Assembly: GCA_020632155.1 (NCBI GenBank)
Contig: JACKGE010000002.1
Coordinates: 21,293 to 85,292, forward strand
DNA length: 64,000 nucleotides
From: Candidatus Nomurabacteria bacterium
GTDB lineage: Bacteria > Patescibacteriota > Minisyncoccia > Phycocordibacterales > UBA918
Reading direction: 5' to 3'
In this document: positions 982 through 56,008 of the stretch, in pieces
Position numbering within the stretch: position 1 is the first letter of the stretch
Layout of the letters: the number at the start of each line of letters is the position of its first letter
The notes under the pieces: model-generated
Told to the model about the DNA's origin: nothing
What the model saw: only the letters and a program-made list of their open reading frames with translations
The model's database searches: none
Translations under genes and position numbers: made by a program

Positions 982-1947
982 TCACATCCAGCGCTTGTAC
1001 TTGAAAAACGCAAAAAAGCCAATCGATACCACCAGCATGATCCCAAGAATAATCCAAAAATCGTTTCGGTGACCAAGTATCGGTGTGGTGGTCGTGTTCA
1101 TGCCGAACATTGAAGTGAAAAGGGTGAGCGGGAAGGTAATAAAAGCCATAATGGTAAGTATCTTCATCACCTCGTTTTGTTTGGTCGATAAGAGGGCGTC
1201 GTTAGTGTCACGTAGGTCCTGCAAGGTACTTGAGAGAGCCAGCACCCGGCGAGACACTTGCTCGTACACTTGCTTAATCTCATGCACAGAGCCACTGTAG
1301 GTCTTACCAAACGAATGAACAACATCAGCCTCCAGAGTCTCTAGAACATCTTCGTGAGCGGTAATGCTATGTCGAAACGCAATTAGGCGCCGGCTCACCT
1401 TTGATATCTCAAAGAGCATCTCTTTTTCATTATCTTCAAAGATATTTTCTTCGATATCTTGCATCTTAGTCTCTAAGTAGTCGAGCTTTAGGTGCAGACC
1501 CTTGTAGATGTACAAAAGCATGACAATAAGTAGACGACCACCATTCATTTTAGCGGCAGTACCATTATCAAGAGTACTTAAAACCTCAAACTCTTTGGCA
1601 AAGCGATGTAAGACCTCTATTTCTTCAAAGCGAATGGTAATGAGGTGGCTCTTGGTGGCAATAAACTTAATTTCGTGGGGGTGGTTGATGTCGGTGCGTT
1701 TTACGACCGGAAAATCAAGGGTTATTTTGAACGCATTTTTAAGCGAAGTAGCTTCAGTATGTGGAGTCATACTGGTAAGATCGGTTGTGAATTCAGGTGG
1801 CAGGCTGCACTCAGCTGCGATCTCGCGTATTTCGTCCGGAGTGGGATTAAGGACATCAAGCCATACCACCTGCTTCTGCTTGTAACGTTCTACCATCACT
1901 ATGTATGATAGCATGCTGTTTTTTGGCAACGGCTGGCACGTGTGCAA
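982..1947 (-). CDS. corA: CorA-family Mg2+/Co2+ transporter
   Basis: C-terminal GMN motif (MFGMN) followed by two TM helices, at a CorA-like length. An alternative start at M12 (about 1914) would avoid overlap with the divergent ctpA. Confidence 0.8.
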   Translation of the reverse strand: MHTCQPLPKNSMLSYIVMVERYKQKQVVWLDVLNPTPDEIREIAAECSLPPEFTTDLTSMTPHTEATSLKNAFKITLDFPVVKRTDINHPHEIKFIATKSHLITIRFEEIEVLHRFAKEFEVLSTLDNGTAAKMNGGRLLIVMLLYIYKGLHLKLDYLETKMQDIEENIFEDNEKEMLFEISKVSRRLIAFRHSITAHEDVLETLEADVVHSFGKTYSGSVHEIKQVYEQVSRRVLALSSTLQDLRDTNDALLSTKQNEVMKILTIMAFITFPLTLFTSMFGMNTTTTPILGHRNDFWIILGIMLVVSIGFFAFFKYKRWM

Positions 1948-3290
1948 TAATACGTGTCATGAATACCCATGCTCAGACTGATACAAGGGGAGATAGCACA
2001 CACCCACGAAAGACCGAACGGCGCGGCAACTTGTTACTTGGAGTCGGGTTGGCGTTAGTGTTTGCTTCGGCAGCATTTTTCTCCGGCCTTAGTATCGGTA
2101 GTGGTGTAGCACATACCGATGCTGCTAACGAAGCCAACATCTTTAGTTTTTGGAAGAATGACGCTCCAGCTAGCGAGGTGGACCTTGGTGAATTTTGGCG
2201 CGTGTGGCACCTAATGGACGACAAGTTTGTTTTTTCATCTTCTACAGCTGCAATCTCAGACGAGGACCGCATCTATGGTGCCATCAAGGGTATGGTTGAG
2301 AGCTATGGTGACCCGTACACCGTGTTCCTAGAGCCGCAGGAAGCATCGCAGTTTGAGGAAGATATCTCGGGTAACTTCGGCGGCGTCGGTATGGAAGTTG
2401 GGATGCGTGATGGACTCGTGACGGTGGTAGCGCCACTTCCAGATACTCCGGCTGAAAAAGCAGGTATGGTGGCTGGTGACGTGGTTCTTGAGATCGATGG
2501 AGTGTCTACCGACAGCATGAGTGTTGACGAAGCCGTCGATCGTATCCGCGGTGAAGTTGGTACTGACGTGGTACTGACAATATATCGCGAGGGAGAGTTC
2601 GAATTCAAAGAGATCACTATTACACGTGGCAACATCACTATTCCGACTGTAGAGACTGAGACCGCGGGTGATGTGTTCATCATTAAGCTCTATAGCTTCA
2701 ACGCCATTTCTGAAATGAAGATGCAAGAGGCACTCCGTAGTTATATCCAAAGTGGCAAACATAAGTTAGTCCTTGATCTACGGGGTAATCCGGGAGGATT
2801 CCTTCAGAGCGCCGTAGCTATTGGCAGTTACTTCTTGCCAACCGGTAAAGTTGTCGTTCGCGAACACTTTGGTGGCGATACCGACGATCAGGTGTACCGT
2901 AGCCAAGGAAAAGTGGTTGATGAGTTTAGTCCGGAAAACTTCGTGGTGCTCTTTGATGGGGGCAGTGCCTCTGCTTCCGAGATCTTGGCTGGTGCGCTTA
3001 AGGAGCATGGTGTCGCAACTGCTATCGGTGATACGTCCTTTGGTAAAGGGTCAGTTCAAGAGTTGGTCTCACTTGGAGACGCCTCACTTAAAGTTACGGT
3101 TGCGCGCTGGCTAACTCCTAACGGAAACTCGCTTTCCGATGGTGGTCTAGAGCCGGATATCACCATCAAGCGTACGCCGCAGCAGGTGGTGGCCGGTGAG
3201 GATCCACAGCAGGAAGCCGCACTGCGCTGGCTGTCCGGAAAGCGTGACCTTCAGGAATACTTTGCATCACAGGAAACGGTAGCTGAGTAG
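1905..3290 (+). CDS. ctpA: Carboxyl-terminal processing protease (S41 peptidase) with a PDZ domain
   Basis: PDZ-like GMEVGMRDGLVTVVAPLPDTPAEKAGMVAGDVVLEIDG, then LDLRGNPGG and SASASEILAGAL S41 signatures. The start could instead be at 1959 (MNTHAQ). Confidence 0.8.
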   Translation: MIACCFLATAGTCAIIRVMNTHAQTDTRGDSTHPRKTERRGNLLLGVGLALVFASAAFFSGLSIGSGVAHTDAANEANIFSFWKNDAPASEVDLGEFWRVWHLMDDKFVFSSSTAAISDEDRIYGAIKGMVESYGDPYTVFLEPQEASQFEEDISGNFGGVGMEVGMRDGLVTVVAPLPDTPAEKAGMVAGDVVLEIDGVSTDSMSVDEAVDRIRGEVGTDVVLTIYREGEFEFKEITITRGNITIPTVETETAGDVFIIKLYSFNAISEMKMQEALRSYIQSGKHKLVLDLRGNPGGFLQSAVAIGSYFLPTGKVVVREHFGGDTDDQVYRSQGKVVDEFSPENFVVLFDGGSASASEILAGALKEHGVATAIGDTSFGKGSVQELVSLGDASLKVTVARWLTPNGNSLSDGGLEPDITIKRTPQQVVAGEDPQQEAALRWLSGKRDLQEYFASQETVAE

Positions 3291-3366
3291 TTTAGCCGTA
3301 CCCTAGAATGTGTTATAGTTGCCCCCACAAAAGCTTATTTTCTGTAATTGAACGAAACCAAGTCGT

Positions 3367-3807
3367 ATGAAAGTCATTTTACTCAAAGACGTCGCTAAGA
3401 TTGGAAGGCGCCATGAGGTTGCGGAAGTGCCCGACGGCTACGCGCTTAACATGTTGATTCCAAAAGGGCTTGCAAAGGCGGGAACACCGGAGAATATCAA
3501 AAAGCTGACTTCAGAGAAACAAGTCTCAGATCAGCAACAAGCAGCTGACGATAAAGCGTTTGCTGATGCAGTTTCGTCACTTAAGGTCAGCGGGCTATCA
3601 GTGCGTTTGCCGGCCAATGAGCAAGGCCATCTTTTTGCTGCCCTTAAAGCAGAACAGGTGAAGGCCGCTGCTGCTGATGCTGGCGTCATGTTAGAAATAT
3701 CATGGGTCACTTTTGCAGAGCCAATCAAAGTGACTGGAGAACACAATCTCACGCTAGAGGCTGGTGGGAATAAAGAAGAGGTAACAGTTACCGTTGTAGC
3801 AGCATAA
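3367..3807 (+). CDS. rplI: 50S ribosomal protein L9
   Basis: N-terminus MKVILLKDVAKIGRRHEVAEVPDGYALNMLIPKGLA is typical of L9. Confidence 0.85.
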   Translation: MKVILLKDVAKIGRRHEVAEVPDGYALNMLIPKGLAKAGTPENIKKLTSEKQVSDQQQAADDKAFADAVSSLKVSGLSVRLPANEQGHLFAALKAEQVKAAAADAGVMLEISWVTFAEPIKVTGEHNLTLEAGGNKEEVTVTVVAA

Positions 3808-3811
3808 CACT

Positions 3812-4528
3812 ATGGCTAGTTATCGTTCCATTATCATACTGCTTTTAGTCACTGCCGGTCTTTTTGCTGGTCTTGCGTGGTGGCTTGAAGTGCGTGATAC
3901 CACCCCAGAGCTTCTTCTTACGGACACTACTACTGGTGAGCAAAAGACCTTAGAGGCACCACTTACCCCCGAAGAACACGACGTTATGAATCCAGTAATC
4001 ACTAATGATATGAATCCAACAGCAGTCATCACTACCAACAAAGGCGTTATTGAGCTCGAGCTTTTTGCTGACGTAATGCCGGTCACTACTGGCAACTTTA
4101 TTAAGCTGGCCGAAGAAGGGTATTACGACAACACTAAGTTCCATCGCATTATTGATAACTTCATGATTCAAGGTGGTGATCCAAACACCAAAACTGCCAA
4201 CGAAGCATCGTACGGTACCGGTGGTCCAGGGTACACCATTGAAGACGAGTTTGTGGCCGGAGATGAGCTTTCAAACACACGTGGCACTATTGCTATGGCC
4301 AACACTGGCCAGCCAAACTCAGGCGGTAGTCAGTTCTTTATCAACTTAGTTGATAATACAGGCCTCGACTTTGACAAGCCACCATTTACCTCAAAACATC
4401 CAGTCTTTGGCCGCGTCACCTCTGGCATGGATGTCGTTGATGCCATTGCCAAGGTAGATACGAAAGAGCGTGATATTCCGGTTGAGCCAGTCGTCATTGA
4501 ATCGGTTCGCATTGAAACTAAGGGGTAA
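3812..4528 (+). CDS. Cyclophilin-type peptidyl-prolyl cis-trans isomerase with an N-terminal TM anchor
   Basis: FHRIIDNFMIQGGDP ... SGGSQFFINL cyclophilin motifs; hydrophobic N-terminus. Confidence 0.85.
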   Translation: MASYRSIIILLLVTAGLFAGLAWWLEVRDTTPELLLTDTTTGEQKTLEAPLTPEEHDVMNPVITNDMNPTAVITTNKGVIELELFADVMPVTTGNFIKLAEEGYYDNTKFHRIIDNFMIQGGDPNTKTANEASYGTGGPGYTIEDEFVAGDELSNTRGTIAMANTGQPNSGGSQFFINLVDNTGLDFDKPPFTSKHPVFGRVTSGMDVVDAIAKVDTKERDIPVEPVVIESVRIETKG

Positions 4529-4551
4529 GAAATGGGAGACACCGCACAAAC

Positions 4552-4579
4552 AAAAAACCATCCTAAAGGATGGTTTTTT
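4552..4579. terminator. Bidirectional intrinsic terminator between the convergent PPIase and rpmA
   Basis: aaaaaaccatcc-taaa-ggatggtttttt: a perfect hairpin flanked by A and T runs. Confidence 0.75.
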
Positions 4580-4595
4580 GTTTGTGTTGCTGGAG

Positions 4596-4871
4596 TTAAG
4601 CGAGGACGTCCACGGCTTTTTTGGTCACGGTGCGACCATCAAAACGCTTTTTACGGATCTCTTTGAACATGACCTTGCCGGCCTGTAGGGCAAAGAGGGT
4701 GTGGTCCTTACCGATGCCGACATTCTTGCCTGCTTCGATCTTGGTGCCGCGCTGACGCACAATAACCTCACCAGTGGCAACTGCTTGGCCATCGGCTCGT
4801 TTGACTCCGAGGAATTTTGGCTGCGAATCACGCAGGTTTTTGGCGGTACCGCCAGCTCGTTTGGTTGACAT
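4596..4871 (-). CDS. rpmA: 50S ribosomal protein L27
   Basis: [25 protein letters not shown]... is the canonical L27 N-terminus. Confidence 0.9.
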
Positions 4872-4893
4872 ACGGTATACTGTTTAAAACAAA

Positions 4894-5286
4894 GTGCCCG
4901 TGAGTATACAAGAAGTTCGTGAAAAAATCAATACAATTATGGCTAATGATGCCGTATTCACTGTTTTGCTGCTGTTTATGGTCTCGTTTGCTTCTTTTGG
5001 CCTTGGTAGGGCCTCTCTGGCGCCACTACAGCAGGTTGCAGCACCAGCAGCTTTACCAGCAGTGCAGCAGTTTTCTGGTGCCCTGCCTGAGCCGTCAAGC
5101 AGCACACAAATTGAGGTGGCTACAACAGCGCAGCAATACGTAGCCTCTAAAAATAGTAACAAATACCATTTGCCATGGTGTAGTGGCGCCAAGCGAATAG
5201 CTGAGGAGAATAAGATTTGGTTTTCAACTAAAGAGGAGGCAGAAGCGGCGGGGTATACACCAGCTGCTAACTGCAAAGGCATCTAA
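4894..5286 (+). CDS. Small membrane-anchored protein with a C-terminal Ada-like (metal-binding-like) motif
   Basis: One TM helix (FTVLLLFMVSFASFGL). The C-terminus YHLPWCSGAKRI...WFSTKEEAEAAGYTPAANCKG resembles the Ada N-terminal zinc-binding domain but has only 2 Cys. Preferred over the overlapping minus-strand ORF on composition. Confidence 0.4.
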   Translation: MPVSIQEVREKINTIMANDAVFTVLLLFMVSFASFGLGRASLAPLQQVAAPAALPAVQQFSGALPEPSSSTQIEVATTAQQYVASKNSNKYHLPWCSGAKRIAEENKIWFSTKEEAEAAGYTPAANCKGI

Positions 5287-5406
5287 GGCGAATGCTTGGC
5301 GAACTACTTTGTTGCCCTTCGGTGAAGTGACTGTCACCATAGGTTTACTATGGCTCCAGATCACTTCCCTTGGTCGCCTCGTATTTCATCCAAGCATTCG
5401 CCTTAG
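5284..5406. repeat. 123-bp element bounded by a perfect 17-bp inverted repeat (ctaaggcgaatgcttgg / ccaagcattcgccttag)
   Basis: Direct sequence comparison; the arms sit at 5284-5300 and 5390-5406. The stop codon of the upstream gene lies inside the left arm. Confidence 0.7.
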
Positions 5407-5472
5407 TTAAATTGTATGACAAAGAAAAACAGCAGCCGTTTGCTACTGTTCTTCTTTACAGTATCGCAGTTA

Positions 5473-5895
5473 CTACTCTACCCCTTGCGGTAGGCTTTGA
5501 CAAGCTACACCATCGCCATCGCGGTCAAGACCGTGGCGGTCTGGATTATCGGCCGTATGGCAGGTGTCGTAGACTTCTTGCGCCTCACTCTGGGTAGAGA
5601 AGTCATCACAGTTGTAAACATTCTCCTCACACATGGCGCCGTATATAGCGTTACCGTCTTCGTCACGTTGAATGACCGTATTTTCAAACGACTTTTGTTC
5701 CCATGCTTTACTAAGGTCCACATCAGTATTTGCGGCTTCAAGCCCAAGTGCTATTAAGAGTACTGCACCAATGCCGAGCATCCACATTCTCGTTTTCTCA
5801 AAGAAAAAACCGATAACCGCCACCAGTACCAAGAGTCCAATGATTATGATAAGTCGACTCTTCTTACTCCGGCGCCAATTTGCTACTTCTTTCAT
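5473..5895 (-). CDS. Membrane-anchored protein with a C-terminal Excalibur-like calcium-binding motif
   Basis: N-terminal TM helix; C-terminus [10 protein letters not shown] matches the Excalibur DxDxDGxxCE signature. Confidence 0.5.
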
Positions 5896-6180
5896 ATGGT
5901 CACTATTGTATATAAAAAATGCCCCAGCGCGAAGCGGGGCGGGTGGGGGGAGCTGAGGTCAGACTTAGGTCGACTAAATCTAAGCCGTTGAGGTCCGCTC
6001 TCTTACAAGGCGTTCAAGCAAGCAACGTAGCCGGCGGCGTACGTTCGGTCGCAAACTCAACAAATGAGTCTTGGCCTCCAATCTTTAACTTACCAAGCAC
6101 ACATTTGACTACAGCTCCCCACAGCAACCATAGCAAAAACTTGGACAGAAGAAAAGACTGGCGTATGCTACGATACAACC

Positions 6181-6777
6181 ATGTTAGTTTTAGATATTGA
6201 GGCTTCCGGTACTGAGTACCACAAACATTCCATCGTTTCTATTGGTGCGTTTGACTTTGCTAATCCGGATAATCGTTTTTACGCTGAGTGCAAAATATGG
6301 GATGGGGCGCACATTATGGACGGTGCGCTAGCGGTAAACGGGTTTACCGAAGCTGAAATCACAGACCCGAGTAAAAAGAGCGAAGCGGAGATTGTAACCG
6401 AGTTCTTAGAGTGGAGCCAGCACCTAGCCGACCGCACCATTCTCGGACAGAATCCGTCGTTTGATAGGGACTTTCTTCGGGTAGCGTCTGAACGGGCCGG
6501 CCTTTCGTGGGACTTGGCCTACCGCACTATCGACACTCATAGTCTGTGTTGGATGCATATAGTAAAGCAGGGAGGAGAGCCGCCAATAGATCAGCAGCAC
6601 CGCCGCTCAGCGCTTGATCTTGATGCCGTACTGAACTACTGCGGGATTCCTGAAGAGCCGCAGCCACACAATGCGCTTACCGGCGCCCTTAGTCATGGGG
6701 AAGTAGCGTCACGCCTTCTCTACGATAAAAAACTACTGCCAGAATTTGAGCAGTATCCTATTCCGTGGCTAGGTTAG
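6181..6777 (+). CDS. DEDDh-family 3'-5' exonuclease (DnaQ/RNase T-like)
   Basis: Exo I LVLDIEASG, Exo II FDRDFL, Exo III HNALTGALSHGE. Confidence 0.7.
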   Translation: MLVLDIEASGTEYHKHSIVSIGAFDFANPDNRFYAECKIWDGAHIMDGALAVNGFTEAEITDPSKKSEAEIVTEFLEWSQHLADRTILGQNPSFDRDFLRVASERAGLSWDLAYRTIDTHSLCWMHIVKQGGEPPIDQQHRRSALDLDAVLNYCGIPEEPQPHNALTGALSHGEVASRLLYDKKLLPEFEQYPIPWLG

Positions 6778-7155
6778 TGCAATCACTGCGACCACGAATA
6801 CTAGAAAGAAGCCAGCCGTTAGTACCGCGCCTGCGGCCATGTCTTTGCTCCGGCCGATTTTGTCATGCAGCTCAGGGTGCAGATGGTCGAGTGCTGACTC
6901 AAACGATGTGTTTTGTAGTTCGGTGATAAGAATGAGTGCCCACGCAAGTCCAAGGAACAACAACTCTGTCTGCGTTAGTGGCCAGAACAAAAAGCCGATT
7001 GCGGTGACTACAATACCACCGGCATAAAATTGCCACTGGTAACTAAAATCAGTACATAGTGCAAAGTAGATACCTTTAAAGGCGTACATAAAACGTAAGG
7101 CATGTCTTTTTATCATATCTAAAAGTGTACCACTTGTTTGTAACTCGCGACTCAC
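6769..7155 (-). CDS. dgkA: Diacylglycerol/undecaprenol kinase (DgkA family)
   Basis: About 120 aa with 3 TM helices; ITELQNTSFESALDHLHPELH...SKDMAAGAVL matches DgkA conserved motifs. Confidence 0.75.
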   Translation of the reverse strand: MSRELQTSGTLLDMIKRHALRFMYAFKGIYFALCTDFSYQWQFYAGGIVVTAIGFLFWPLTQTELLFLGLAWALILITELQNTSFESALDHLHPELHDKIGRSKDMAAGAVLTAGFFLVFVVAVIALT

Positions 7156-7182
7156 ACGTCTGTGTGGTGCTAAAATGAGCGC

Positions 7183-7935
7183 ATGGTACGTATATTTGGT
7201 AAAGGAAAAAGTTCTTCAAAAAAAGCTCTTACAAACTCTAAAGGTCCAGTTGAAAATTGTCGGGTCATGACCGATCTTCTCGACCCTGATGGCGACGCTA
7301 TCGAAAGCTGGCGAGTCTTTCGCATTATGTCCGAGTTTGTGACCGGCTTTGAGATGCTCCGCAAACACGGCCTTGCCGCATCTATCTTTGGTAGCGCCCG
7401 CACACAGGTAGGGGACCCATACTACAAAGCGGCTGAGGAACTGGCAGCTAAGCTCGCCAAAAAAGGTTTTTCAGTTATTACTGGCGGCGGTCCGGGTATT
7501 ATGGAAGCGGGTAACGTCGGGGCCTTTAAGGTGGGCGGTAAGTCCATTGGCCTTAACATCAGCTTGCCGATGGAACAAAAGCTCAATCCGTATGTGACCG
7601 AGACCGAACGCTTTGAGTTTTTCTTTTCCCGCAAGGTGATGCTGGCGTTTGCTTCTGAGGTCTATATTTATTTTCCCGGTGGTTTTGGCACCATGGATGA
7701 GTTTTTTGAGATACTCACACTCGTACAAACCAAAAAGATCGAACGTATTCCAATTGTGCTCTACGGCAAAGAGTTTTGGGAGCCACTAGTGAAATGGTTT
7801 GAAAAAGACCTTCTCAAAAAGCATAAGACCATCAGCAAAGAAGACCTTGACCTCTTTAAGGTTGTAGACTCTGTTGAGGAAGCGTACAAATACATTGTGA
7901 AGGTAACAAACGGCAAACCGACTTCACAAGTATAA
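7183..7935 (+). CDS. LOG-family protein (TIGR00730, cytokinin riboside 5'-monophosphate phosphoribohydrolase-like)
   Basis: GGGPGIMEAGNVGA and PGGFGTMDEFFE LOG motifs. The start may be at 7267 (MTDLL). Confidence 0.8.
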   Translation: MVRIFGKGKSSSKKALTNSKGPVENCRVMTDLLDPDGDAIESWRVFRIMSEFVTGFEMLRKHGLAASIFGSARTQVGDPYYKAAEELAAKLAKKGFSVITGGGPGIMEAGNVGAFKVGGKSIGLNISLPMEQKLNPYVTETERFEFFFSRKVMLAFASEVYIYFPGGFGTMDEFFEILTLVQTKKIERIPIVLYGKEFWEPLVKWFEKDLLKKHKTISKEDLDLFKVVDSVEEAYKYIVKVTNGKPTSQV

Positions 7936-7940
7936 GTACC

Positions 7941-8876
7941 ATGCAAAAACCGCTAGAGATCACTGAGAGTTTTGATATAGATTCCATCCCAAACCTTGAT
8001 GTGGTGGTCTTGGCAGCACTTGAGCTACTCCAAACCACTGCCTTGCCAGCGCTGAACATTGATGCGTATAAAAAACCACTTGTCATCGGTAGCGGCAATG
8101 CGCTTCAAACGGGAAAGATACTGTTTTCGAGCACTCCAGCGCGCTTTGCTGATGAATCTACCTACCACGAGGCTTTGGCGCAGTACGATGACATCGACAC
8201 GGTGGTGGTGGTCTCTGCCTCTGGTAGTAAACATGCCAGTGGTATTGCTAAAACGGCCAAAGACAGTGGTAAAGACGTAGTCCTCCTTACCAACAATCCT
8301 GCTGCGCCAGCAGCAGAGTTTGTGGCGGCCGAACACATACATGTCTTTCCGAAGAATCGTGAACCGTACACCTACAACACCTCTACCTACCTCAGTATGA
8401 TTTTTGCAGAAACGGGGGAGAGTCCAGCCACAATCCTGAGCTACATCATGCAATCGGTAGAGCCTCAGGCGCTCCGTAACTTTGCCGACTACCGTTCGTA
8501 TGTATTTATACTGCCGGCTCGTTTTGAGGCTGCTACTGCCATGGTCCGTACCAAGTTTGATGAGCTTTTTGGCCCGTATGTACAAGGGCGCGTGTTCACC
8601 GACGAAGAGATAAAACACGCTAAGACGGTAGTTACCTCAGGTGATGAGCTATTCATTGCTCTCGGCAGCGAAAACAAACACTACGGTGTAGGAAAGAACC
8701 GTATCTGTTTAGAGTTACCGGCGGGGGCTGGTTACGCTACCGTCATTGCTGCCTCATATTATCTCGTTGGCCTTATTCAAAAAGCTCACCCACCATTCTT
8801 TAAAGACAATATCGAGGCTTATACCCAGACTGCCAGCGAAATATTCGGACACGAGATAAAACCAATTGTAGAATAG
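7941..8876 (+). CDS. SIS-domain-like protein (sugar-phosphate isomerase/etherase fold, MurQ/GlmS-like), function unknown
   Basis: VVVSASGSKHASGIAKTAKDSGKDVVLLTNNP resembles the SIS motif (e.g. the MurQ pattern ASGRTP...V.VS.NP). Confidence 0.4.
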   Translation: MQKPLEITESFDIDSIPNLDVVVLAALELLQTTALPALNIDAYKKPLVIGSGNALQTGKILFSSTPARFADESTYHEALAQYDDIDTVVVVSASGSKHASGIAKTAKDSGKDVVLLTNNPAAPAAEFVAAEHIHVFPKNREPYTYNTSTYLSMIFAETGESPATILSYIMQSVEPQALRNFADYRSYVFILPARFEAATAMVRTKFDELFGPYVQGRVFTDEEIKHAKTVVTSGDELFIALGSENKHYGVGKNRICLELPAGAGYATVIAASYYLVGLIQKAHPPFFKDNIEAYTQTASEIFGHEIKPIVE

Positions 8877-8880
8877 AGTT

Positions 8881-9720
8881 ATGACGTACGTACTTTTCGA
8901 TATTGGTGGCACTAAGACACGTGTAGCGGTCTCCAAGGACCTCAAGCAGTTTGCTGAGCCTATTTCGTTTAAAACACCCAAGAAGTTTGAAGAGGGAATA
9001 GACGCTATCGTTGAGGCAGTAAAGAAGATGGAGACAGGCCCTATTACCGCAGCTGCCGGTGGCGTACGCGGTGTTCTCTCTGAGGACCGCAGTGAGATCA
9101 TGGACGACAGCGCGCTCTCAGCGTGGGTAGAAGAGCCACTTAAAGAAAACCTAAAAAAGAAACTAAAAACTGAGGTTTATATCGAGAATGACTCAGCCGT
9201 AGTAGCGCTCGGTGAAGCGCACTTCGGGGCAGGGCAGGGGGCTGACATCATGGTCTACCACACCGTCAGTACCGGTGTTGGTGGCGCTAAAATAGAGCAA
9301 GGCCACATTGATAGTTTTTCTGTTGGGTTTGAGCCGGGGAAGCAGATACTCGACATAGACCGCACCATTCTTGGTGAAGATGTCTTACCGACATTGGAGA
9401 ACCTTGTGTCTGGTACGGCCCTTGAGGCACGTACGGGTGTAAAACCGTACGAGATACCGCAAAGCGATGCTGTTTGGGATCAGCTCGCATACTACTTGGC
9501 CCATGGCCTCCGCAACTCTGTTCTGTACTGGTCACCAGATGTGATTGTACTCGGCGGTTCGATGATAGTCGGCGATCCACGTATTTTGCTGGACGATATC
9601 ATCAAACATACGCAAGCGGTATTAGGGGAAGAGGTGCCGTGTCCGCTACTAAAGGATGCGGAGTTAGGTTCAGTAGGTGGACTCTATGGCGCCATGGCCC
9701 TCCTTGAGCAGCGAACCTAA
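8881..9720 (+). CDS. ROK/BadF-type sugar kinase (glucokinase/N-acetylglucosamine kinase-like)
   Basis: N-terminal LFDIGGTKTRVAV ATP-binding motif of ROK/BadF-type ATPases. Confidence 0.65.
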   Translation: MTYVLFDIGGTKTRVAVSKDLKQFAEPISFKTPKKFEEGIDAIVEAVKKMETGPITAAAGGVRGVLSEDRSEIMDDSALSAWVEEPLKENLKKKLKTEVYIENDSAVVALGEAHFGAGQGADIMVYHTVSTGVGGAKIEQGHIDSFSVGFEPGKQILDIDRTILGEDVLPTLENLVSGTALEARTGVKPYEIPQSDAVWDQLAYYLAHGLRNSVLYWSPDVIVLGGSMIVGDPRILLDDIIKHTQAVLGEEVPCPLLKDAELGSVGGLYGAMALLEQRT

Positions 9721-9747
9721 TATCACTTCATCTGCTTTGTCAGTCTG

Positions 9748-9798
9748 CAAAAAATGAAGCTCGCTGGACTCATTCGTCCCACTCGCTTCATTTTTCTT
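9748..9798 (+). terminator. Intrinsic terminator after the sugar kinase gene
   Basis: 11-bp perfect stem aaaaatgaagc/gcttcattttt followed by a T run. Confidence 0.6.
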
Positions 9799-10067
9799 GC
9801 CTTCCTCACATCTAAAGCAATCTTAGGTTCGCTAAAAATAAAGAGCGACCGAAGTCGCTCTTGAAAAGAAAATCGGGCGCCTCAAGGGACTTCTTCCTTC
9901 TCCTTTTTTAAGGGACGTATACCTTTCGGTGCGGAACGTATATCCATTCGGATACCCGAAGCCAAACTATATCACAAAGAAACAAGATTATCTAACACTG
10001 GCAGAAATGGCAGGGGAGGGTATACTAAGAACTACTGACTATAAGCTACTAACTAATCACTATTTAT

Positions 10068-10841
10068 ATGCCTTGGATACCACTAATTGTTGTAGTTATT
10101 CTCATTCTCTCGTTCTTGCGGGAGGTGAAACAGTATGAGCGGGGAGTTGTCCTCACCATGGGTAAATTCACCGGTATTCGTCAGCCGGGATGGAGTATTG
10201 TGGTGCCGGTCTTTCAACGCATGATGAAGGTGGACCTGCGCGTTAAAGCAGTAGACGTACCGGACCAAAAGGTCATCACGCGTGATAATGTCTCTGCTAG
10301 CATCAATGCCGTTATCTACTACAAGGTATCTGATGCCGCTAAGGCCGTGCTTGAGGTAGAGAACTTCTACTTTGCAGTCTCGCAGCTGGCACAGACCACC
10401 ATGCGTAACATTGTCGGTAGCGCTGAGCTTGATGAAGTGCTGGCTGAGCGCGAAAAGCTCTCACAGAAAATAAAAGAGATTGTGGACGCGGAGACCGACA
10501 ACTGGGGTATCAAGGTGGAGAATGTTGAACTCAAAGATTTCTTCCTTCCAGAAGACATGGAACGCACCATTGCCAAGCAAGCCGAGGCGGAGCGTGAGCG
10601 CCGCGCGGTCATCATCAAGGCAGAAGGGGAGGTGGCAGCAGCGGAAAATATGGCCAAAGCAGCCGGAATCCTCTCTGGTTCAAGCGGCGCCCTTCACCTA
10701 CGTTCCCTTCAGACCCTTAACGACCTTTCTTCTGACCAATCGAACACCGTTATCTTTGCAGTACCGCTTGAAGTCCTGCGCGCATTTGAGCGTTTAGGAG
10801 TTGAAGTGCCAAATAAAAGTCAAAATAACGGCCAACAATAA
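10068..10841 (+). CDS. SPFH/Band 7 (stomatin/prohibitin-like) membrane protein
   Basis: N-terminal TM helix; the QYERGVVLTMGKF...IITRDNV...AVIYYKV SPFH core; coiled-coil C-terminus. Confidence 0.85.
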   Translation: MPWIPLIVVVILILSFLREVKQYERGVVLTMGKFTGIRQPGWSIVVPVFQRMMKVDLRVKAVDVPDQKVITRDNVSASINAVIYYKVSDAAKAVLEVENFYFAVSQLAQTTMRNIVGSAELDEVLAEREKLSQKIKEIVDAETDNWGIKVENVELKDFFLPEDMERTIAKQAEAERERRAVIIKAEGEVAAAENMAKAAGILSGSSGALHLRSLQTLNDLSSDQSNTVIFAVPLEVLRAFERLGVEVPNKSQNNGQQ

Positions 10842-10884
10842 GGCTTTTATAGACTATTGACACATAGAAAATACATGGCATAAG

Positions 10885-10913
10885 TTGACTTTATGCTGGT
10901 TTCGTGCTATACT
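10885..10913 (+). promoter_or_regulatory. Sigma70-like promoter TTGACT-N17-TATACT
   Basis: Near-consensus hexamers with 17-nt spacing, about 95 nt upstream of the 11007 ORF. Confidence 0.5.
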
Positions 10914-11006
10914 TGCTCTGCAAGCGGCGATGTGCCGTTTTTTGTTTGACTAAACGATTTGTCAGACAAATTTGTTAGATAAGACCATTGGCTTATTATA
11001 TCCTCA

Positions 11007-11438
11007 TTGATCTCAGCTGTTCTTGCTGTTTCCGGAGTTGCTACCAGCGTTGATACGCAAGTAGCCTACGGACAGATCACTACACAAGTAGACGAGAAGA
11101 GCGAGATCGCTTCTGCAACCGCAGGTAATACCGAGCTCGCTGTCCGTGAATACTTCAGCGATATTCCGGTAATGATCGAAGTTGCTCGCTGTGAATCGAC
11201 CTTCCGCCACCAGTTGGCTGACGGTTCGATCCTTCAAGGAAAAGTTGACCCTGCTGACACTGGTGTCATGCAGATCAACAAACGCTTCCATGAAGCCGCA
11301 GCCGCTAAGATGGGCCTTAACTTGGATGATCTTTACGACAACATGGCCTACGCCCGTCATCTCTATGAGAAGCAGGGAACACAGCCGTGGAGCGCATCGT
11401 CACCATGTTGGGGTCGTACTCTGGCATACAATAACTAA
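11007..11438 (+). CDS. Secreted lysozyme-like/transglycosylase-domain protein (SLT/Rpf-like); TTG start
   Basis: Signal-like N-terminus; ARCESTFRH...GVMQINKRFH resembles the catalytic Glu plus GLMQ motif of lytic transglycosylase/Rpf domains. Confidence 0.45.
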   Translation: MISAVLAVSGVATSVDTQVAYGQITTQVDEKSEIASATAGNTELAVREYFSDIPVMIEVARCESTFRHQLADGSILQGKVDPADTGVMQINKRFHEAAAAKMGLNLDDLYDNMAYARHLYEKQGTQPWSASSPCWGRTLAYNN

Positions 11439-11441
11439 TAC

Positions 11442-11469
11442 AAAAAACGCCCCTCTGGGGCGTTTTTTG
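11442..11469. terminator. Bidirectional intrinsic terminator
   Basis: aaaaaacgcccc-tct-ggggcgtttttt. Confidence 0.75.
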
Positions 11470-11483
11470 TATATGGCAAGAAA

Positions 11484-11873
11484 CTAGAGTTTCCAGCCTT
11501 CACCCGGCCCGTAAGCGAGGGTATAAAGGAGGCCACCAACGATAGCTAGATTTTTAAGAATACTAATACTATCGGTTGGATTTACATGGCCAAACCAAGT
11601 AGCAGCCAAGGTAAAGACAATCAGGGCCATCGCCGCCTGCTCAGTTCGAATACCGAGCATAAGCGCGCCACCGCCGACAATTTTGACCGCCAAAACGACC
11701 CAGACCATAAGACTGGCAAGGGGTACGCCAGCTGACATAAAATAAGCGGCTGTATTACCGGTGCCGCTCATAATCATGCCAACTGCGGAGTATACGAATA
11801 AAAGACCGATGAGCATACGCCCGACCATGGTGCCGTGGGTTCGCATCATGGCCTTGTGTGATTCGCTAAGCAT
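11484..11873 (-). CDS. DoxX-family membrane protein
   Basis: About 130 aa with 4 TM helices and a DoxX-like layout. Confidence 0.6.
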   Translation of the reverse strand: MLSESHKAMMRTHGTMVGRMLIGLLFVYSAVGMIMSGTGNTAAYFMSAGVPLASLMVWVVLAVKIVGGGALMLGIRTEQAAMALIVFTLAATWFGHVNPTDSISILKNLAIVGGLLYTLAYGPGEGWKL

Positions 11874-11949
11874 AGTGTAGACCTATTGAATAAATCTGGG
11901 AGGATATTCCCGTATAGATTAGTATACCCGCACTCCAAACCTTTACAAT

Positions 11950-12474
11950 ATGCTAATTTGCACATATTCATCTCACAGAGGTTATACTAGGCATATTATG
12001 GCTGATACACAAACAGGGCAGGGGTACTGGATTATGAAAAGCGAACCAAGCTGCTACTCTATTGATGACCTCAAGCGAGACAAAAAGACCATGTGGGATG
12101 GGGTGCGGAACTATCAAGTACGCAATATGATGCGTGACCAGATGCAGGCAGGGGACTTGGCGCTCTTTTACCACTCGAGTACCAAAGAGGTGGGGGTAGT
12201 GGGTGTTATGGAAATAGTGGGGAAGGCGTATCCGGACCCCACTCAGTTTGACCCAAAAAGTGACCACCCAGACCCGACCTCAGACCCAAAGAGCCCACGC
12301 TGGCTGTGTGTTGATGTGGCGTTTAAACAGAAGTTTCCGCAGGTAGTTTCATTAGAGCTGTTAAAAGAAAGCAAACCGTTACAACAGCTACAGATTCTAA
12401 AGCGGGGAAATCGATTATCAGTCACCCCAGTCACCAAAAATGAGTTCGAGTGCATTCTAAAGATGGCAGTATAG
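11950..12474 (+). CDS. EVE (PUA-like) domain protein
   Basis: YWIMKSEPSCYSIDDL...WDGVRNYQVRNMMRDQMQAGDLALFYHS EVE signature. The start is probably at 11998 (MADTQ). Confidence 0.8.
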   Translation: MLICTYSSHRGYTRHIMADTQTGQGYWIMKSEPSCYSIDDLKRDKKTMWDGVRNYQVRNMMRDQMQAGDLALFYHSSTKEVGVVGVMEIVGKAYPDPTQFDPKSDHPDPTSDPKSPRWLCVDVAFKQKFPQVVSLELLKESKPLQQLQILKRGNRLSVTPVTKNEFECILKMAV

Positions 12475-12477
12475 ACT

Positions 12478-13269
12478 ATGAAAATAGGTTTTTTTGATTC
12501 CGGTTTGGGCGGTATCGTCATTATGAAAGCGGTTGCAGCCGCCTTACCGCAGTATGACTATGAGTTTTATGGTGACACCTTAAACCTACCGTTTGGTGAT
12601 AAAACCGAGGAAGAAATATTCAAACTTACTAAAGCCGGCATGGAAGCACTTTTTGCTAAAGATTGTCTTATTAATATTGTGGCATGTAACACCTCATCTG
12701 CAGAATCAATGCGCAAACTCCAAGACACATTCTTGCCAGCCGGGTACCCTGATAGGCGTATTTTGGGAGTCATCATTCCGGCAGTAGAGGAGCTTATCGA
12801 CAAACAAGCCAAGAAGGTTATTTTGCTCGCCACTAAACGTACGATCGAGTCTGGTAAGTATGAACGTGAGCTCAAAAATCGACATCATGAGAAGGTAGAA
12901 CTCTATGGAGTTGCCACGCCGGCCCTTGTGCCACTGATTGAAGCAGGAAATATTGAAACGGCCACAAAAGAAGCAGCAAGAGTACTTTTGGACCTGATGG
13001 CCTCAGTAGGGGAGGTAGATAGTGTGGTTTTGGGATGCACCCACTACACGCTTTTGCGCCCAGCCCTTCAGCAGGCTTTCCCTGAAGTGACATTTGTCTC
13101 ACAAGACGAGTTTGTGCCGCATAAGCTAGAGGCTTACCTTACAGCTCATCCGGAGCATGAACAAAGACTCAGTCGGGGAGGGACGCGAAATATACAACTG
13201 ACTCAAGACAGACAAGATTATGATCAGATCATTGCCGAACTTCTAGGAGGGGTTTATTTACCGCAGTAG
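12478..13269 (+). CDS. murI: Glutamate racemase
   Basis: FDSGLGGIV and VACNTSSA motifs. Confidence 0.9.
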   Translation: MKIGFFDSGLGGIVIMKAVAAALPQYDYEFYGDTLNLPFGDKTEEEIFKLTKAGMEALFAKDCLINIVACNTSSAESMRKLQDTFLPAGYPDRRILGVIIPAVEELIDKQAKKVILLATKRTIESGKYERELKNRHHEKVELYGVATPALVPLIEAGNIETATKEAARVLLDLMASVGEVDSVVLGCTHYTLLRPALQQAFPEVTFVSQDEFVPHKLEAYLTAHPEHEQRLSRGGTRNIQLTQDRQDYDQIIAELLGGVYLPQ

Positions 13270-13288
13270 GGCGCTGTTCCCTAAAATA

Positions 13289-13324
13289 GTATAAGAGTCG
13301 CACCACTAGGGCACTTCCTTATAC
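13289..13324. repeat. Hairpin gtataag...cttatac; its 5' arm gtataagagtcgcac recurs as a direct repeat at 13352-13367
   Basis: Direct inspection of the sequence. Confidence 0.5.
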
Positions 13325-13371
13325 CTAATTCGAGCTAGACGCTCTCATAAGGTATAAGAGTCGCACAATAT

Positions 13372-13420
13372 ATCTTTTGCGAAGTATAAATAATGCATTT
13401 ATTTATACTTCGCAAAAGAT
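13372..13420. repeat. Perfect 22-bp inverted repeat with a 5-nt spacer (atcttttgcgaagtataaataa-tgcat-ttatttatacttcgcaaaagat)
   Basis: I checked every base pair of the arms: 22/22 complementary. Confidence 0.9.
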
Positions 13421-13423
13421 GAC

Positions 13424-13468
13424 GCCATTTCGCGACCCCTAGGCTTAGGGTCGCGAAATGGCTTTTTA
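13424..13468. terminator. Strong terminator-like hairpin with a 15-bp perfect stem (gccatttcgcgaccc / gggtcgcgaaatggc), a cctaggcttag loop and a T run
   Basis: Direct inspection; A and T runs on both sides. Confidence 0.7.
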
Positions 13469-13910
13469 AGACAGTAAATAATGTGTTGCAAACAGAGATA
13501 TTGATATTGTACGATGAGTGCCTGCCAATGCTCACGTCGTACAACGCTCTTTATACAAAACAGTATCTACGGTTGTTTCAGATCACATTTAAATAATTTT
13601 TTTCAGAGTTTATAAACACTGAGTTTGTAAACCTTAAATTTTGACGTCACAGAATCGATTCTAAGGCCTTCGAGTGTAGCTGCGCGATACAGTACTCATG
13701 TCGTTAGGTTTTACTAATGAAGAATTACTTCGCGTGAGTTCGGATTTGATTGCTGACTTAGCTCATCTGAATATCAGACAGTCATTCTTTCTAGCTCGTG
13801 TACATGCTGTACAGGTGGCTAACTTTTTGTTAACACTTTGCTGTGCACGTTGTACTTGAATACTAAAAAGCCTGATCGTTTGATCAAGCGTCGCAAAATA
13901 TTCAGTTTTT

Positions 13911-14110
13911 TGTGTCGTACTGCCAAACTTTTCTTCTTACAGAAACTGTACACCTTGTCGATATTTTACTTCAAGTATTCCTAAAATATCGGGCAAGGTC
14001 TTGTGTCGTGCTCCCAGACTTTTCTTCTTACAGAAACTGTTCAGGTTGTCAGATTTTCTGTTCGCATTGCTCAAGAAAATCTAGGCAACCTCTTGCGAAG
14101 GTCTCCCAGA
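13911..14110. repeat. Tandem ~91-bp units: two good copies (13911-13990, 14002-14080) plus a degenerate third. Each has a ~45-nt conserved segment followed by a 9-10 bp hairpin whose stem sequence differs between copies.
   Basis: Conserved segments tgtgtcgtactgccaaacttttcttcttacagaaactgtacaccttgtc versus tgtgtcgtgctcccagacttttcttcttacagaaactgttcaggttgtc. Following hairpins cgatatttta/taaaatatcg versus agattttct/agaaaatct. Confidence 0.75.
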
Positions 14111-14121
14111 CCTTCTCACCC

Positions 14122-14144
14122 AAAAGCCCGCTGAGCGGGCTTTT
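14122..14144. terminator. Intrinsic terminator hairpin (aaaagcccg-ctga-gcgggctttt), probably for the minus-strand M23 peptidase gene
   Basis: GC stem flanked by A and T runs, about 130 nt downstream of the 14275 stop. Confidence 0.65.
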
Positions 14145-14274
14145 GTGTGGGTAAGTTCCTACGATGCACTGCATCGCACTTACATGATAGCAAAATTTTG
14201 ACTTCTCCCCTGCTCTATCCACGGGTTTATCCCCAGAATCTTAAGCAATAACACATTAATTTATAATGTCAATC

Positions 14275-15576
14275 TTAGCGTGGAGGCAGATAATCAAGTG
14301 GGTTAAGGTACCCCTCGATCGCAGAAAATGGCGAATACGCAGCGCCACAACCAGTAACTGCCTTGAATTCACTAAATTTTTTGACTTGCACTGCTTCACT
14401 TACGTAGAGTGTGTAGTGGAGGTGTGGTCCCGTAGAGTAGCCCGTGTTACCACTGTATGCCACCACGTCCCCAGTGTTTACTTTTTGCCCAGGGCTGACT
14501 GCGATGTGACTAAGGTGCGCAAAAAGAGTCGACAGACCATTTGGGTGGTCTATAAGTATCCATTTACCCCACGAGTAACAACCAGGGACAGCATCAGTGT
14601 TGCCGGTAGCACGAATGGTGCCGGTCAGCGGCGCGTAGACCTTAGTACCAACCGGTGTACCGAGATCTATTCCGTTGTGTTTGCTGCCATTGTACGCGCC
14701 AGAAAGAGCAAACTTTGTATACCCAAAGTATTGTGTGATGACAACGTTATCAAGCGGCCAACGAAAGACAGCTGTACCCGGAGTTGGAATCTTGTTTGGA
14801 TCGAGAATGAATTGAAGTTGTGACTCAATGTCCTGCACTTCCTTGATAAGTTGCTCACGCGCCGCCTTACGCTCAGCGAGCATTGCTTGGTACTCAGCCT
14901 CCTCATTGCGGGTTTCAGTAAGTAATTGATCTTTTTCTGCCTTATTATTCTCAAGTACCGCGTGTTGACCTGAGTACTGTGCCTTAAGGTCAACGAGAGC
15001 GTCACGTTCGTCAGTTTCTTGCTTCTTTTTTCCGCCCAATTCTTCACGTAACGTTTGTAAAGCATCTACTTGCTCCGACATGCTGTTGCGCACTGTCTCT
15101 AAACTATCAACTTCATCCCAGAACTCTGCCAAGTTATCTTTACTGAGCAGTATCTCAACAAACGAATCGTTGTCACTTGAATAGAGACGGCGAAGTATCT
15201 CGCTAATCGCTTGTTCGTTTTTGGCAATACTTCGCTCTGTATTGCTGATCTCAAGTGTTAGTTTGTTGATTTCAAGGTCGGTGCTACTGATCTTATTTTG
15301 CGTGTAATCAATATCCGCTAACACTTTTTTTCGTTCAAGATTAAGACGGTAGATAGCGTCTTGTAGAGTCTTTTTTTCTGCCCCAACTTCACCAAGCGCA
15401 CTCTCAAACTCTTTGATCTCTTGTTCGATCTGGTCTAACCGCTCGTTTTTTTCGTTGATCTGATTTTGTAGTTTGGTTATCTCGGCGCTTTGTGCTGACA
15501 CAAAAGAAGGGCCGACTGTAAGCATCGGAAAAATCAAAAGCCCTAATATAAAAGCCGTGAGACGTTGTACTCTCAT
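14275..15576 (-). CDS. M23-family peptidase with a long N-terminal coiled coil (EnvC/LytM-like murein hydrolase activator)
   Basis: Signal peptide, extended coiled coil, then HNGIDLGTPVGTKVYA ... GNTGYSTGPHLHY M23 motifs. Confidence 0.8.
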   Translation of the reverse strand: MRVQRLTAFILGLLIFPMLTVGPSFVSAQSAEITKLQNQINEKNERLDQIEQEIKEFESALGEVGAEKKTLQDAIYRLNLERKKVLADIDYTQNKISSTDLEINKLTLEISNTERSIAKNEQAISEILRRLYSSDNDSFVEILLSKDNLAEFWDEVDSLETVRNSMSEQVDALQTLREELGGKKKQETDERDALVDLKAQYSGQHAVLENNKAEKDQLLTETRNEEAEYQAMLAERKAAREQLIKEVQDIESQLQFILDPNKIPTPGTAVFRWPLDNVVITQYFGYTKFALSGAYNGSKHNGIDLGTPVGTKVYAPLTGTIRATGNTDAVPGCYSWGKWILIDHPNGLSTLFAHLSHIAVSPGQKVNTGDVVAYSGNTGYSTGPHLHYTLYVSEAVQVKKFSEFKAVTGCGAAYSPFSAIEGYLNPLDYLPPR

Positions 15577-54976: not shown

Positions 54977-56008
54977 TTACTCAACGAGCATGTATGAACC
55001 GTTGGAAAGCCGTTTGAAAATGTTGGTGTCTTGTAGGTTGACCACAATAGTGTTGTCTTTGACGTAGCGCTCTTTACGAACCTTGTCGATAATTTCTTCA
55101 CGGGTAAGCGGGCCGTTCTTTTCAAGAATTTCGCGCAAGACATCTTTTACGACACCAGCAGAGTATCCCCATTCAGAAAGTGCGTAAAGACCGCGGCCAA
55201 CCAGTACAAAGCGCTCATCCTTAATGAGTTCGTTGTGGGTTGTGGCGGTGTGTGCTTTTTTGCCAAAAAGCTCGTTAATAGCCCCTGCTACTTCTCGGAA
55301 GTGCATTGGAGAGCCGTGGCGCTTTACTGCCAAGTACGCATAATCGCGAATGCCTTTAACGCGAACATTTGGGCTTTCGGCATGACCCCACTCACCAAGT
55401 GGATTATTAGTGATCTCTTTAGAAATAGTAAGCCAGCGCTTTAGTATCTGCTCATCGTATTTGTCAGCAATATCAATAAGTTGATCTCGGAAGCGAGCTA
55501 GGACTTCTTCTTCGGAAATAAGCTCGTCAGCAGCGAGGGACTGGTATACGTTCTTAAGGGCCTTTTCCACCGTCTCCGCTATTTTCTTTTCTGTGTACCA
55601 GCGATGTGCGTAGGCATTGTTTTCTTTGTTACGGTAAAACGGACTACCAAGGACTAGCAGGAAGTAAATGTGATTGCGGGTTGCTTGATCTTTCGTCAAG
55701 CTATCAAGCAGTTCATGTTCAGCGATAAGCCCACCGCCAAGTGAGACAATGGCTTCCTGAAGCTCGTCAAAGACGGATTGAAACTCGCTGTATACATCTG
55801 ACTTTTGAATAGACTGAATGCCGTAGTTCTCGATTTGACGCACTCGCTCACGTGTAATGCCGTAGGTCTGGCCAATGGCCTCTAGTGTATACGTCTCAGT
55901 TTCTTTACCAAGCCCGTAGCGCTTTTCAAGCACATCACGAGCACGCTCAGGAAGAGCGGCCAGTAGTTTTTTGGTTACTTGTTTTGGTTTAAACGTAATC
56001 ATAATCAA
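54977..56008 (-). CDS. Protein with an N-terminal sigma-70 region-4-like HTH followed by a ~250-aa domain of unknown function
   Basis: LPERARDVLEKRYGL...TLEAIGQTYGITRERVRQIENYGIQSI matches sigma70 region 4.2; regions 2 and 3 are absent. Confidence 0.5.
   Translation of the reverse strand: MIMITFKPKQVTKKLLAALPERARDVLEKRYGLGKETETYTLEAIGQTYGITRERVRQIENYGIQSIQKSDVYSEFQSVFDELQEAIVSLGGGLIAEHELLDSLTKDQATRNHIYFLLVLGSPFYRNKENNAYAHRWYTEKKIAETVEKALKNVYQSLAADELISEEEVLARFRDQLIDIADKYDEQILKRWLTISKEITNNPLGEWGHAESPNVRVKGIRDYAYLAVKRHGSPMHFREVAGAINELFGKKAHTATTHNELIKDERFVLVGRGLYALSEWGYSAGVVKDVLREILEKNGPLTREEIIDKVRKERYVKDNTIVVNLQDTNIFKRLSNGSYMLVE

Follow-up and report, generated by a model that had tools for sequence, protein, structure and literature searches.

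The non-coding gap of about 1 kb at 13270-14274 of a 64-kb stretch of a Candidatus Nomurabacteria contig (JACKGE010000002.1; the whole stretch is called the window below) is a replication terminus, and we consider it likely that it is the terminus region of a Patescibacteria chromosome whose core is a 28-bp dif site (13358-13385), the remaining parts of the gap being secondary. The original prediction for this DNA, made from the sequence alone, described many of the hairpins and repeats in the gap, all of which are present, and overlooked the dif-like site that organizes it.

The gap separates murI (12478-13269, plus strand), whose product is assigned to Asp_Glu_race by Pfam, from an M23 peptidase gene (14275-15576, minus strand), and the two genes converge on it. 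The same arrangement holds across the window, where nearly all open reading frames (ORFs) of at least 150 amino acids lie on the plus strand from 1905 to 13269 and on the minus strand from 14275 to 62710. The guanine-cytosine (GC) skew is positive to the left of the gap and negative to the right, with its cumulative maximum at 12-14 kb; convergent genes together with a skew change from positive to negative mark a terminus and not an origin. A plasmid- or phage-derived origin or iteron region, which the original prediction had entertained and for which the repeats, hairpins and AT-richness of the gap and weak DnaA-box-like motifs near 14227 can be cited, was therefore ruled out and retains next to no probability, since gene convergence and skew are the reverse of an origin pattern, no replication gene lies nearby, and the window shows no enrichment of DnaA boxes (13 found versus 15 expected, none of them perfect).

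The element at the core of the gap has a layout of two inverted arms flanking an asymmetric 6-nt centre (11-6-11):

13358-13385, plus strand: dif-like 28-mer, with left arm GAGTCGCACAA (13358-13368), centre TATATC (13369-13374) and right arm TTTTGCGAAGT (13375-13385)

The closest M23-encoding loci, which keep the gene order murG-gltX-M23 ... murI/EVE/DoxX/SPFH, all come from genome bins of Patescibacteria (the candidate phyla radiation, CPR), labelled Paceibacterota, Saccharibacteria, Kaiserbacteria and Minisyncoccia; comparison loci are designated by L-numbers, L003 being the closest full relative of the window. When the gap was compared with these relatives by blastn, one short piece was kept even at about 40% M23 identity, and this piece is the core of the site (GTCGCACAATATATCTTTTGCGA(C), 13360-13383), made up of core arms GTCGCACAA and TTTTGCGAC around TATATC, with 8 of 9 core arm positions complementary. 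The 23-24-nt core is identical or different at a single base in ten syntenic loci, and its orientation relative to M23 is constant. In public metagenomes, at least 120 contigs carried an exact match to the 24-nt core, one copy each, including contigs of 345, 583 and 637 kb, and four IMG/VR contigs also have it. The window likewise holds one copy in its 64 kb, copies being counted per contig.

Flank logos built from 124 distinct contexts showed information in only 3 nt on each side before falling to background, and these informative positions (W-R-Y and R-Y-W) extend the palindrome of the arms, which indicates an element of 28-30 bp with an 11-6-11 layout. The idea that a longer structured RNA starts with the 24-mer was rejected, since conservation ceases 3 nt beyond the core. 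For 31 loci with at least 2.5 kb on either side, each oriented by the motif, genes were directed towards the motif on the left side in 25 and on the right side in 29, and GC skew was higher to the left of the motif than to the right in all 31. The site is intergenic in the window and in its syntenic relatives, and its G+C content of 11/28 (0.39) compares with 0.37-0.41 for the gap and 0.46-0.55 for the flanking genes. The site shows the features by which dif has been recognized elsewhere (PMC2731167), namely a skew peak, a non-coding position, inverted repeats flanking a hexanucleotide, and low GC. Aligned in register with E. coli dif (sequence from PMC2731167), it matches at 18 of 28 positions by our own count; the left-arm core CGCACAA is the same as in Shewanella dif (sequence from PMC2731167), and the right arm matches the XerD arm at only 7 of 11 positions.

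Several observations weigh against this assignment. The metagenome scan accepted exact matches only, so the invariance of the 24-mer is partly by construction. The inner palindrome test of Kono et al. gave 4 pairs where more than 4 are asked for, and palindromy is concentrated in the outer arm positions, unlike in E. coli dif. In addition, the right arm in the window is one base off the common form (GCGAA, not GCGAC), and an Xer recombinase gene was found neither in the 64-kb window nor elsewhere with a tie to this genome. For XerCD systems, the lack of a recombinase gene beside dif is usual.

Only one other dif-like match occurs in the window (TTCGCGCAA-gacatc-TTTTACGAC, 55130-55153). Its centre is 6 nt long and 15 of its 18 arm positions match; it falls within a long minus-strand ORF and is probably due to chance.

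On the model of XerCD/dif, both arms of the site at 13358-13385 would be bound by tyrosine recombinases of the Xer type, and strand exchange across the centre would resolve chromosome dimers at division. The fixed polarity of the site would correspond to directional loading, as with FtsK.

Pseudo-sites and large hairpins beside the site

The sequence around the dif-like site and the start of the tandem units farther to the right contain partial and degenerate copies of it, and some of these form large hairpins:

13289-13303, plus strand: duplicate of the site's left flank and left arm (GTATAAGA-GTCGCAC), a half-site and the 5′ arm of a GTATAAG...CTTATAC hairpin
13318-13358: imperfect inverted repeat of 18 nt, 83% complementary, between the half-site copies and included in the predicted fold
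13372-13420: 22-bp perfect hairpin with arms 13372-13393 and 13399-13420 and a 5-nt spacer, to which the site contributes its right half and A′ its first half
13409-13436, minus strand: A′, an inverted dif-like pseudo-site found by arm scan, reading GTCGCGAAA-tggcgtcatc-TTTTGCGAA with a 10-nt centre
13424-13467: 15-bp perfect hairpin with arms 13424-13438 and 13448-13462 and a 9-nt loop, formed by A′ and A″ and followed by TTTTT
13451-13473, plus strand: A″, a direct partial copy reading GTCGCGAAA-TGGC-TTTTTAAGAC, in which the centre is short and the right arm degenerate
13890-13916, minus strand: degenerate inverted pseudo-site preceding the tandem units, its centre 9 nt long and its right arm perfect (TTTTGCGAC, read on the minus strand)

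The half-site belongs to an exact direct repeat of 15 nt (GTATAAGAGTCGCAC) whose copies at 13289-13303 and 13352-13366 lie 63 nt apart; two matches were found in 0 of 100 shuffles. Folded as DNA, the segment 13280-13480 scored z = -11.1 relative to shuffled sequences. Upon comparison with the original prediction, the GTATAAG...CTTATAC hairpin with an arm recurring 63 nt on and the 22-bp perfect inverted repeat with its 5-nt spacer at 13372-13420 were both present, as was the 15-bp perfect stem followed by a T run, the loop of which is 9 nt and not the 11 nt given there. Both large hairpins follow from the site being nearly palindromic: its copies pair with their neighbours, giving perfect stems of 22 bp and 15 bp.

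A triplet of dif, A′ and A″ was seen on the right-arm side of the site at approximately 10 of the 111 loci, and on the left-arm side hardly at all. A″ ends in CTTTTTAAGAC, and an ending of the form ...CTTTT(T)AAGAC or CTTTTCGAC is also found in L003, L004, L012 and L013. Dif-like attachment sites of phages typically have longer centres and degenerate arms (PMC3025954), and it is from these features, together with the distribution of the triplet, that we read A′ and A″ as dif-derived pseudo-sites. In the proposed course of events, the left half-site would have been duplicated at 63 nt, on the side where prophages are integrated in relatives, and two further copies, A′ (inverted, its centre expanded) and A″ (direct and degenerate), would have formed both large hairpins. 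A′ and A″ may thus be scars or landing structures of Xer-exploiting elements, an origin that we infer, co-opted as a terminator. The 15-bp hairpin with its T run, derived from the right arm, has the form of an intrinsic terminator and looks like the predicted terminator of the murI operon; the minus strand was also flagged as terminator-like. The suggestion in the original prediction of a decayed mobile element therefore stands in part, in that the hairpins are copies of a site used by phages in relatives, and fails for the AT-rich part of the gap, which looks like a chromosomal gene.

A broader reading, which we regard as rather unlikely, is that the triplet of dif, inverted copy and partial copy is a functional accessory structure, and that the small RNA and the co-varying tandem hairpins described below belong to the same regulatory hub. 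If this were true, a folded single strand or cruciform would control Xer recombination or give single-stranded phages a place to land, and the small RNA, with DnaA-box-like repeats before it, would link replication status to gene regulation.

Tandem units, a putative conserved small RNA and a probable gene remnant

The remainder of the gap, to the right of A″, contains the following features:

13474-13869, minus strand: AT-rich stretch, a probable gene remnant (Glucosamine_iso/6-phosphogluconolactonase family) with a relic at 13642-13692
13870-13889, minus strand: terminator-like hairpin, GCTTGATCAAACGATCAGGC followed by TTTTT
13910-14117, plus strand: two 91-nt units (~13910-14000 and ~14001-14091) and a degenerate third that runs into the terminator
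14120-14179, minus strand: putative small RNA of ~60 nt, with a 5′ hairpin, an unpaired invariant GUAGGAACUUACC (14162-14150) and a terminator hairpin (14123-14145)
14185-14193, minus strand: putative extended -10 promoter element TGCTATCAT for the small RNA; in most aligned loci its spacing from the RNA is constant
14227-14235, plus strand: DnaA-box-like 9-mer TTATCCCCA with one mismatch, upstream of the small-RNA promoter

Standard annotation searches of the gap returned little. A scan for transfer RNA and transfer-messenger RNA genes in the gap found none, Rfam at gathering scores gave no match in the window or in 11 related loci, a sensitive Rfam scan of the gap produced only sub-threshold hairpin look-alikes, and promoter predictions in the gap did not rise above shuffled controls. 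The original prediction was right that there is no convincing ORF: coding potential was rejected because the ORFs of 53, 69 and 80 amino acids have no Pfam match and the 91-nt period of the units is not divisible by 3. The Logan annotation of this sequence treats the 53-amino-acid ORF (13698-13859, plus strand) as a gene. The ORF matches no family and lacks conservation in L003; it lies on the strand opposite to the presumed gene remnant, and is probably spurious.

Each tandem unit consists of a conserved segment of ~45 nt, a hairpin of ~17 bp and the sequence T(C/T)TTG(T/C)G, with successive units spaced 91 and 92 nt apart from ~13901/13910. Over a 50-nt segment, units 1 and 2 are 88% identical and the third unit 74%; the hairpin of the third unit is the conserved terminator. 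Thus the tandem units, the degenerate third and the co-varying hairpins of the original prediction were recovered, with stems of ~17 bp in place of its 9-10 bp. These stems have one bulge and one G-T pair each, and approximately 8 of 17 stem positions differ between units with complementarity kept. Tandem Repeats Finder made no call, since whole units are too divergent. An integron attC-like reading of the units was also rejected, no R/L boxes being visible by eye. The units are absent from L003, from 148 other loci and from the viral and metagenome collections, and a comparison of 13470-14117 with the 148 loci by blastn and tblastx gave matches limited to the palindrome block described below and to the small-RNA block. 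The units look like a local, lineage-specific tandem duplication of a terminator module, and they are probably not a conserved RNA. One finding runs counter to this account, in that simple duplication and drift do not explain the compensated stem differences; arm-to-arm templated repair of quasi-palindromes, or selection for the hairpin, could have produced them.

The alternative that the hairpins and units form a cluster of small-RNA genes or one long structured RNA draws on the strong predicted folding of 13890-14160 (z = -7.7 on the plus strand and -5.1 on the minus strand, versus shuffles), on unit stems that differ yet still pair, with a G-T in each that fits the plus strand better, and on terminator-like ends on both strands. 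We nevertheless judge it unlikely, given the absence of the units from the 148 other loci and the collections searched, the lack of an Rfam match or convincing promoter, and the explanation of the large perfect hairpins as copies of a palindromic DNA site. Among the RNA candidates, only a separate small RNA on the minus strand is conserved, so that the cluster of small RNAs in the original prediction is reduced to this one RNA and does not extend to the tandem units, which are conserved nowhere.

This putative small RNA was found downstream of M23 in 13 loci (e.g. L003 1219-1288 and L146 8674-8747), and a covariance model recovers it in these relatives only, on the M23 strand. Read along that strand, the 13-locus alignment contains TGnTAT(T/C)AT, a compensated hairpin, the 13-mer GUAGGAACUUACC and a GC-rich second hairpin, the last of which corresponds to the final terminator of the original prediction; that hairpin is real, at 14123-14145, and ends the small RNA. 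In the alignment, 89% of cells are paired and 8 pairs are changed on both sides, compared with 27-49% for slid controls, although the alignment was fitted to the model and the pair counts consequently lean towards structure. An invariant G-U pair, which would be a C-A mismatch on the opposite strand, is compatible with the minus strand only. The RNA matched no Rfam family, the 13-mer was not found in the searchable literature, and no convincing seed targets were seen in the window. Judged from sequence, 14120-14179 may be an independent small RNA or a conserved element in the 3′ untranslated region of the M23 messenger RNA. Its extended -10 element, covarying 5′ hairpin, unpaired 13-mer and terminator hairpin are like those of trans-acting bacterial small RNAs that have a single-stranded seed and an intrinsic terminator, from which it differs in matching no described family and having no target in the window.

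Most relatives carry DnaA-box-like 9-mers, from one to three in number, in the interval that separates the M23 stop codon from the small-RNA promoter; these are perfect (TGTGGATAA, RNA strand) in L004, L015, L016 and L081 and with one mismatch in most others; such 9-mers are odd at a terminus. An independently assembled Logan contig from the same organism (L001, SRR12358675_295595), 100% identical over the overlap, ends at 14178, within the small RNA and just past its terminator, an assembly break that may reflect strain variation or a repeat.

For the AT-rich middle of the gap, relatives offer a comparison. In L146, the order is dif, a 257-amino-acid gene of the Glucosamine_iso/6-phosphogluconolactonase family, the small RNA and M23, and an intact gene occupies the same place and strand in L081, L031, L033, L034, L037 and L063 as well. 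Its 3′ end lies 46-76 nt from the right arm in six of these loci and 389 nt in L081. In the window, no open frame remains, but the relic at 13642-13692 (minus strand) still reads TLEGLRIDS, with a palindrome AGAATCGATTCT at 13651-13662, and the relic block is conserved in L003, L135 and others. A dozen loci carry a 14-nt palindrome (TAGAATCGATTCTA) 190-335 nt from the right arm, which in intact genes is coding and reads ..IDSRAS... Because both the strand and the distance from the site match, a decayed gene is the most likely explanation, and on this comparison 13474-13869 is probably what is left of a gene of the 6-phosphogluconolactonase family that relatives still have intact. The tblastn match between relic and intact gene (53% over 17 amino acids, E = 0.19) is weak when taken alone and counts against this assignment.

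Where the gene is gone, the (T/C)AGAATCGATTCTA palindrome and its flanks are kept, as in the window (13642-13668), L003 (1587-1606), L007 (7749-7764), L009 (4101-4116), L010 (7816-7831) and L135 (3830-3849). Neutral decay does not explain its presence in gene-less loci; a protein-binding site inside the former gene may account for it.

Relatives carry one to three genes between M23 and the dif-like site, among them members of the 6-phosphogluconate-dehydrogenase-like, S49 peptidase and FemAB families. Gene content in this interval is variable (L011 2600-3565, L015 7496-8416, L012 7303-8217, and L019 and L021 7301-8377), and this clade appears to have a hotspot of gene gain and loss at its terminus.

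Mobile elements and recombinases at the site

L027 and L029 are homologous to each other on the left-arm side of the site and unrelated on the other side. The left-arm side contains a small, filamentous-phage-like gene set with a Zot-like assembly ATPase, and no integrase was found among the genes of these inovirus-like elements. In L027 (272-5168), the element encodes the Zot-like ATPase and proteins of 512 and 91 amino acids. Homologues were located ~500 nt from the motif, without exception to its left-arm side, and fall into at least four distinct versions (L027/L038/L112, L029, L049 and L090). From their gene content and position, we regard these as candidate Xer-exploiting prophages of CPR bacteria. 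Inoviruses have been reported from CPR hosts (PMC6813254), and the classical elements that exploit Xer are filamentous phages which have no integrase and integrate at dif (PMC6744903 and others). An integrase-less element beside the site was seen in part in L027, L029, L049, L090 and L112, with one junction in each; the gap in the window has pseudo-sites and no element genes, so that an element without its own integrase enclosed between a dif site and a dif-like site was not found there.

Other mobile sequences also adjoin the site. L028 is a tailed-phage contig (504-9109, with terminase, portal and capsid genes) whose site is 300 nt from the contig end, and L026 (3338-8575) is a mobile-looking contig that encodes, on the left-arm side, a tyrosine recombinase, an S49 peptidase, a PD-(D/E)XK nuclease and a HerA helicase.

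In L026, L040, L056 and L071, a tyrosine recombinase is encoded at a distance of 300-650 bp from the site, and eight relatives have a XerC/D-type recombinase gene in the same gap. In four loci where the canonical site is absent, a variant site (TTCGCACAA-TATATG-TAAAACGAAC) stands just upstream of the recombinase gene (L007 ~7990-8017, L016 ~8870-8897, L022 ~1860-1886 and L023 ~8090-8116), with an inverted left half-site 420-630 bp away. A second recombinase group occurs in L009, L010 and L014. The variant looks, by sequence, like a site-plus-recombinase module in place of the canonical right arm.

These associations raise the alternative that the 28-mer is the attB of mobile elements with their own integrase and is unrelated to Xer/dif, since mobile or viral genes adjoin the site in IMG/VR contigs and some of those contigs carry a tyrosine recombinase. 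We find this quite improbable: the majority of the 133 loci lack recombinase or mobile genes in the vicinity, the site stands unoccupied at the terminus with fixed polarity across lineages down to 40% M23 identity, and the inovirus-like elements are without an integrase, as expected when the host Xer is borrowed. Less probable again is another kind of terminus protein-binding site, such as a fork trap (Ter/RTP-like), a condensin-unloading site or a macrodomain site. The terminus position and palindromic arms would suit it, as would the extra half-sites nearby, which recall the XerD-only sites of Bacillus. However, fork traps and macrodomain sites are multicopy and occur in both orientations, whereas here there is one copy with one polarity, and the asymmetric 6-bp centre and the prophage junctions fit a recombination site.

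Comparison with known systems and implications

In architecture, position, polarity, non-coding context and composition, the region agrees with the XerCD/dif terminus of E. coli, Bacillus and most bacteria, and by this analogy it would work like one. Shared features are the 28-bp length with 11-bp inverted arms and a 6-bp asymmetric centre, the single copy per contig, the location at a GC-skew maximum and gene-strand switch, the fixed polarity, and a left arm that resembles proteobacterial XerC arms. In contrast to XerCD/dif, the right arm (TTTTGCGAC) nearly mirrors the left arm and is not the conserved XerD arm (TTATGTTAAAT), palindromy is strongest at the outer positions, and no xer gene is linked to the site in the window. 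The gene-plus-site modules in L007, L016, L022 and L023 resemble XerS/difSL and XerH/difH, single-recombinase modules of the kind described in PMC2731167, from which the window and most dif-bearing loci differ in having no adjacent recombinase. Similar to CTXphi, VGJphi, TLCphi and the gonococcal island, integrase-less filamentous-phage-like elements adjoin the site in relatives, and pseudo-sites with longer centres and degenerate arms lie beside the true site; unlike those systems, the window has the pseudo-sites and half-site duplication only, with no element genes. Our literature search found no paper that gives this site or discusses dif/Xer in Patescibacteria. The dif site is thus a known kind of element, of which the Patescibacteria version, like the small RNA, was not found in the searchable literature.

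A terminus with a dif site will not surprise a specialist, and the value of the finding lies in the marker, the candidate Xer-exploiting inoviruses of CPR bacteria, the variant module and the small RNA. A terminus marker invariant across the phylum would help to orient and check fragmentary CPR bins, would locate the terminus without skew analysis, and would reveal prophages that borrow the host recombinase. The small RNA is one of few candidate regulatory RNAs in Patescibacteria. For hairpin-packed gaps between convergent genes more generally, a terminus/dif reading is worth testing first. Overall, the results suggest that minimal episymbiotic bacteria keep a classical dimer-resolution site, and that some lineages may have swapped it for a site-plus-recombinase module.

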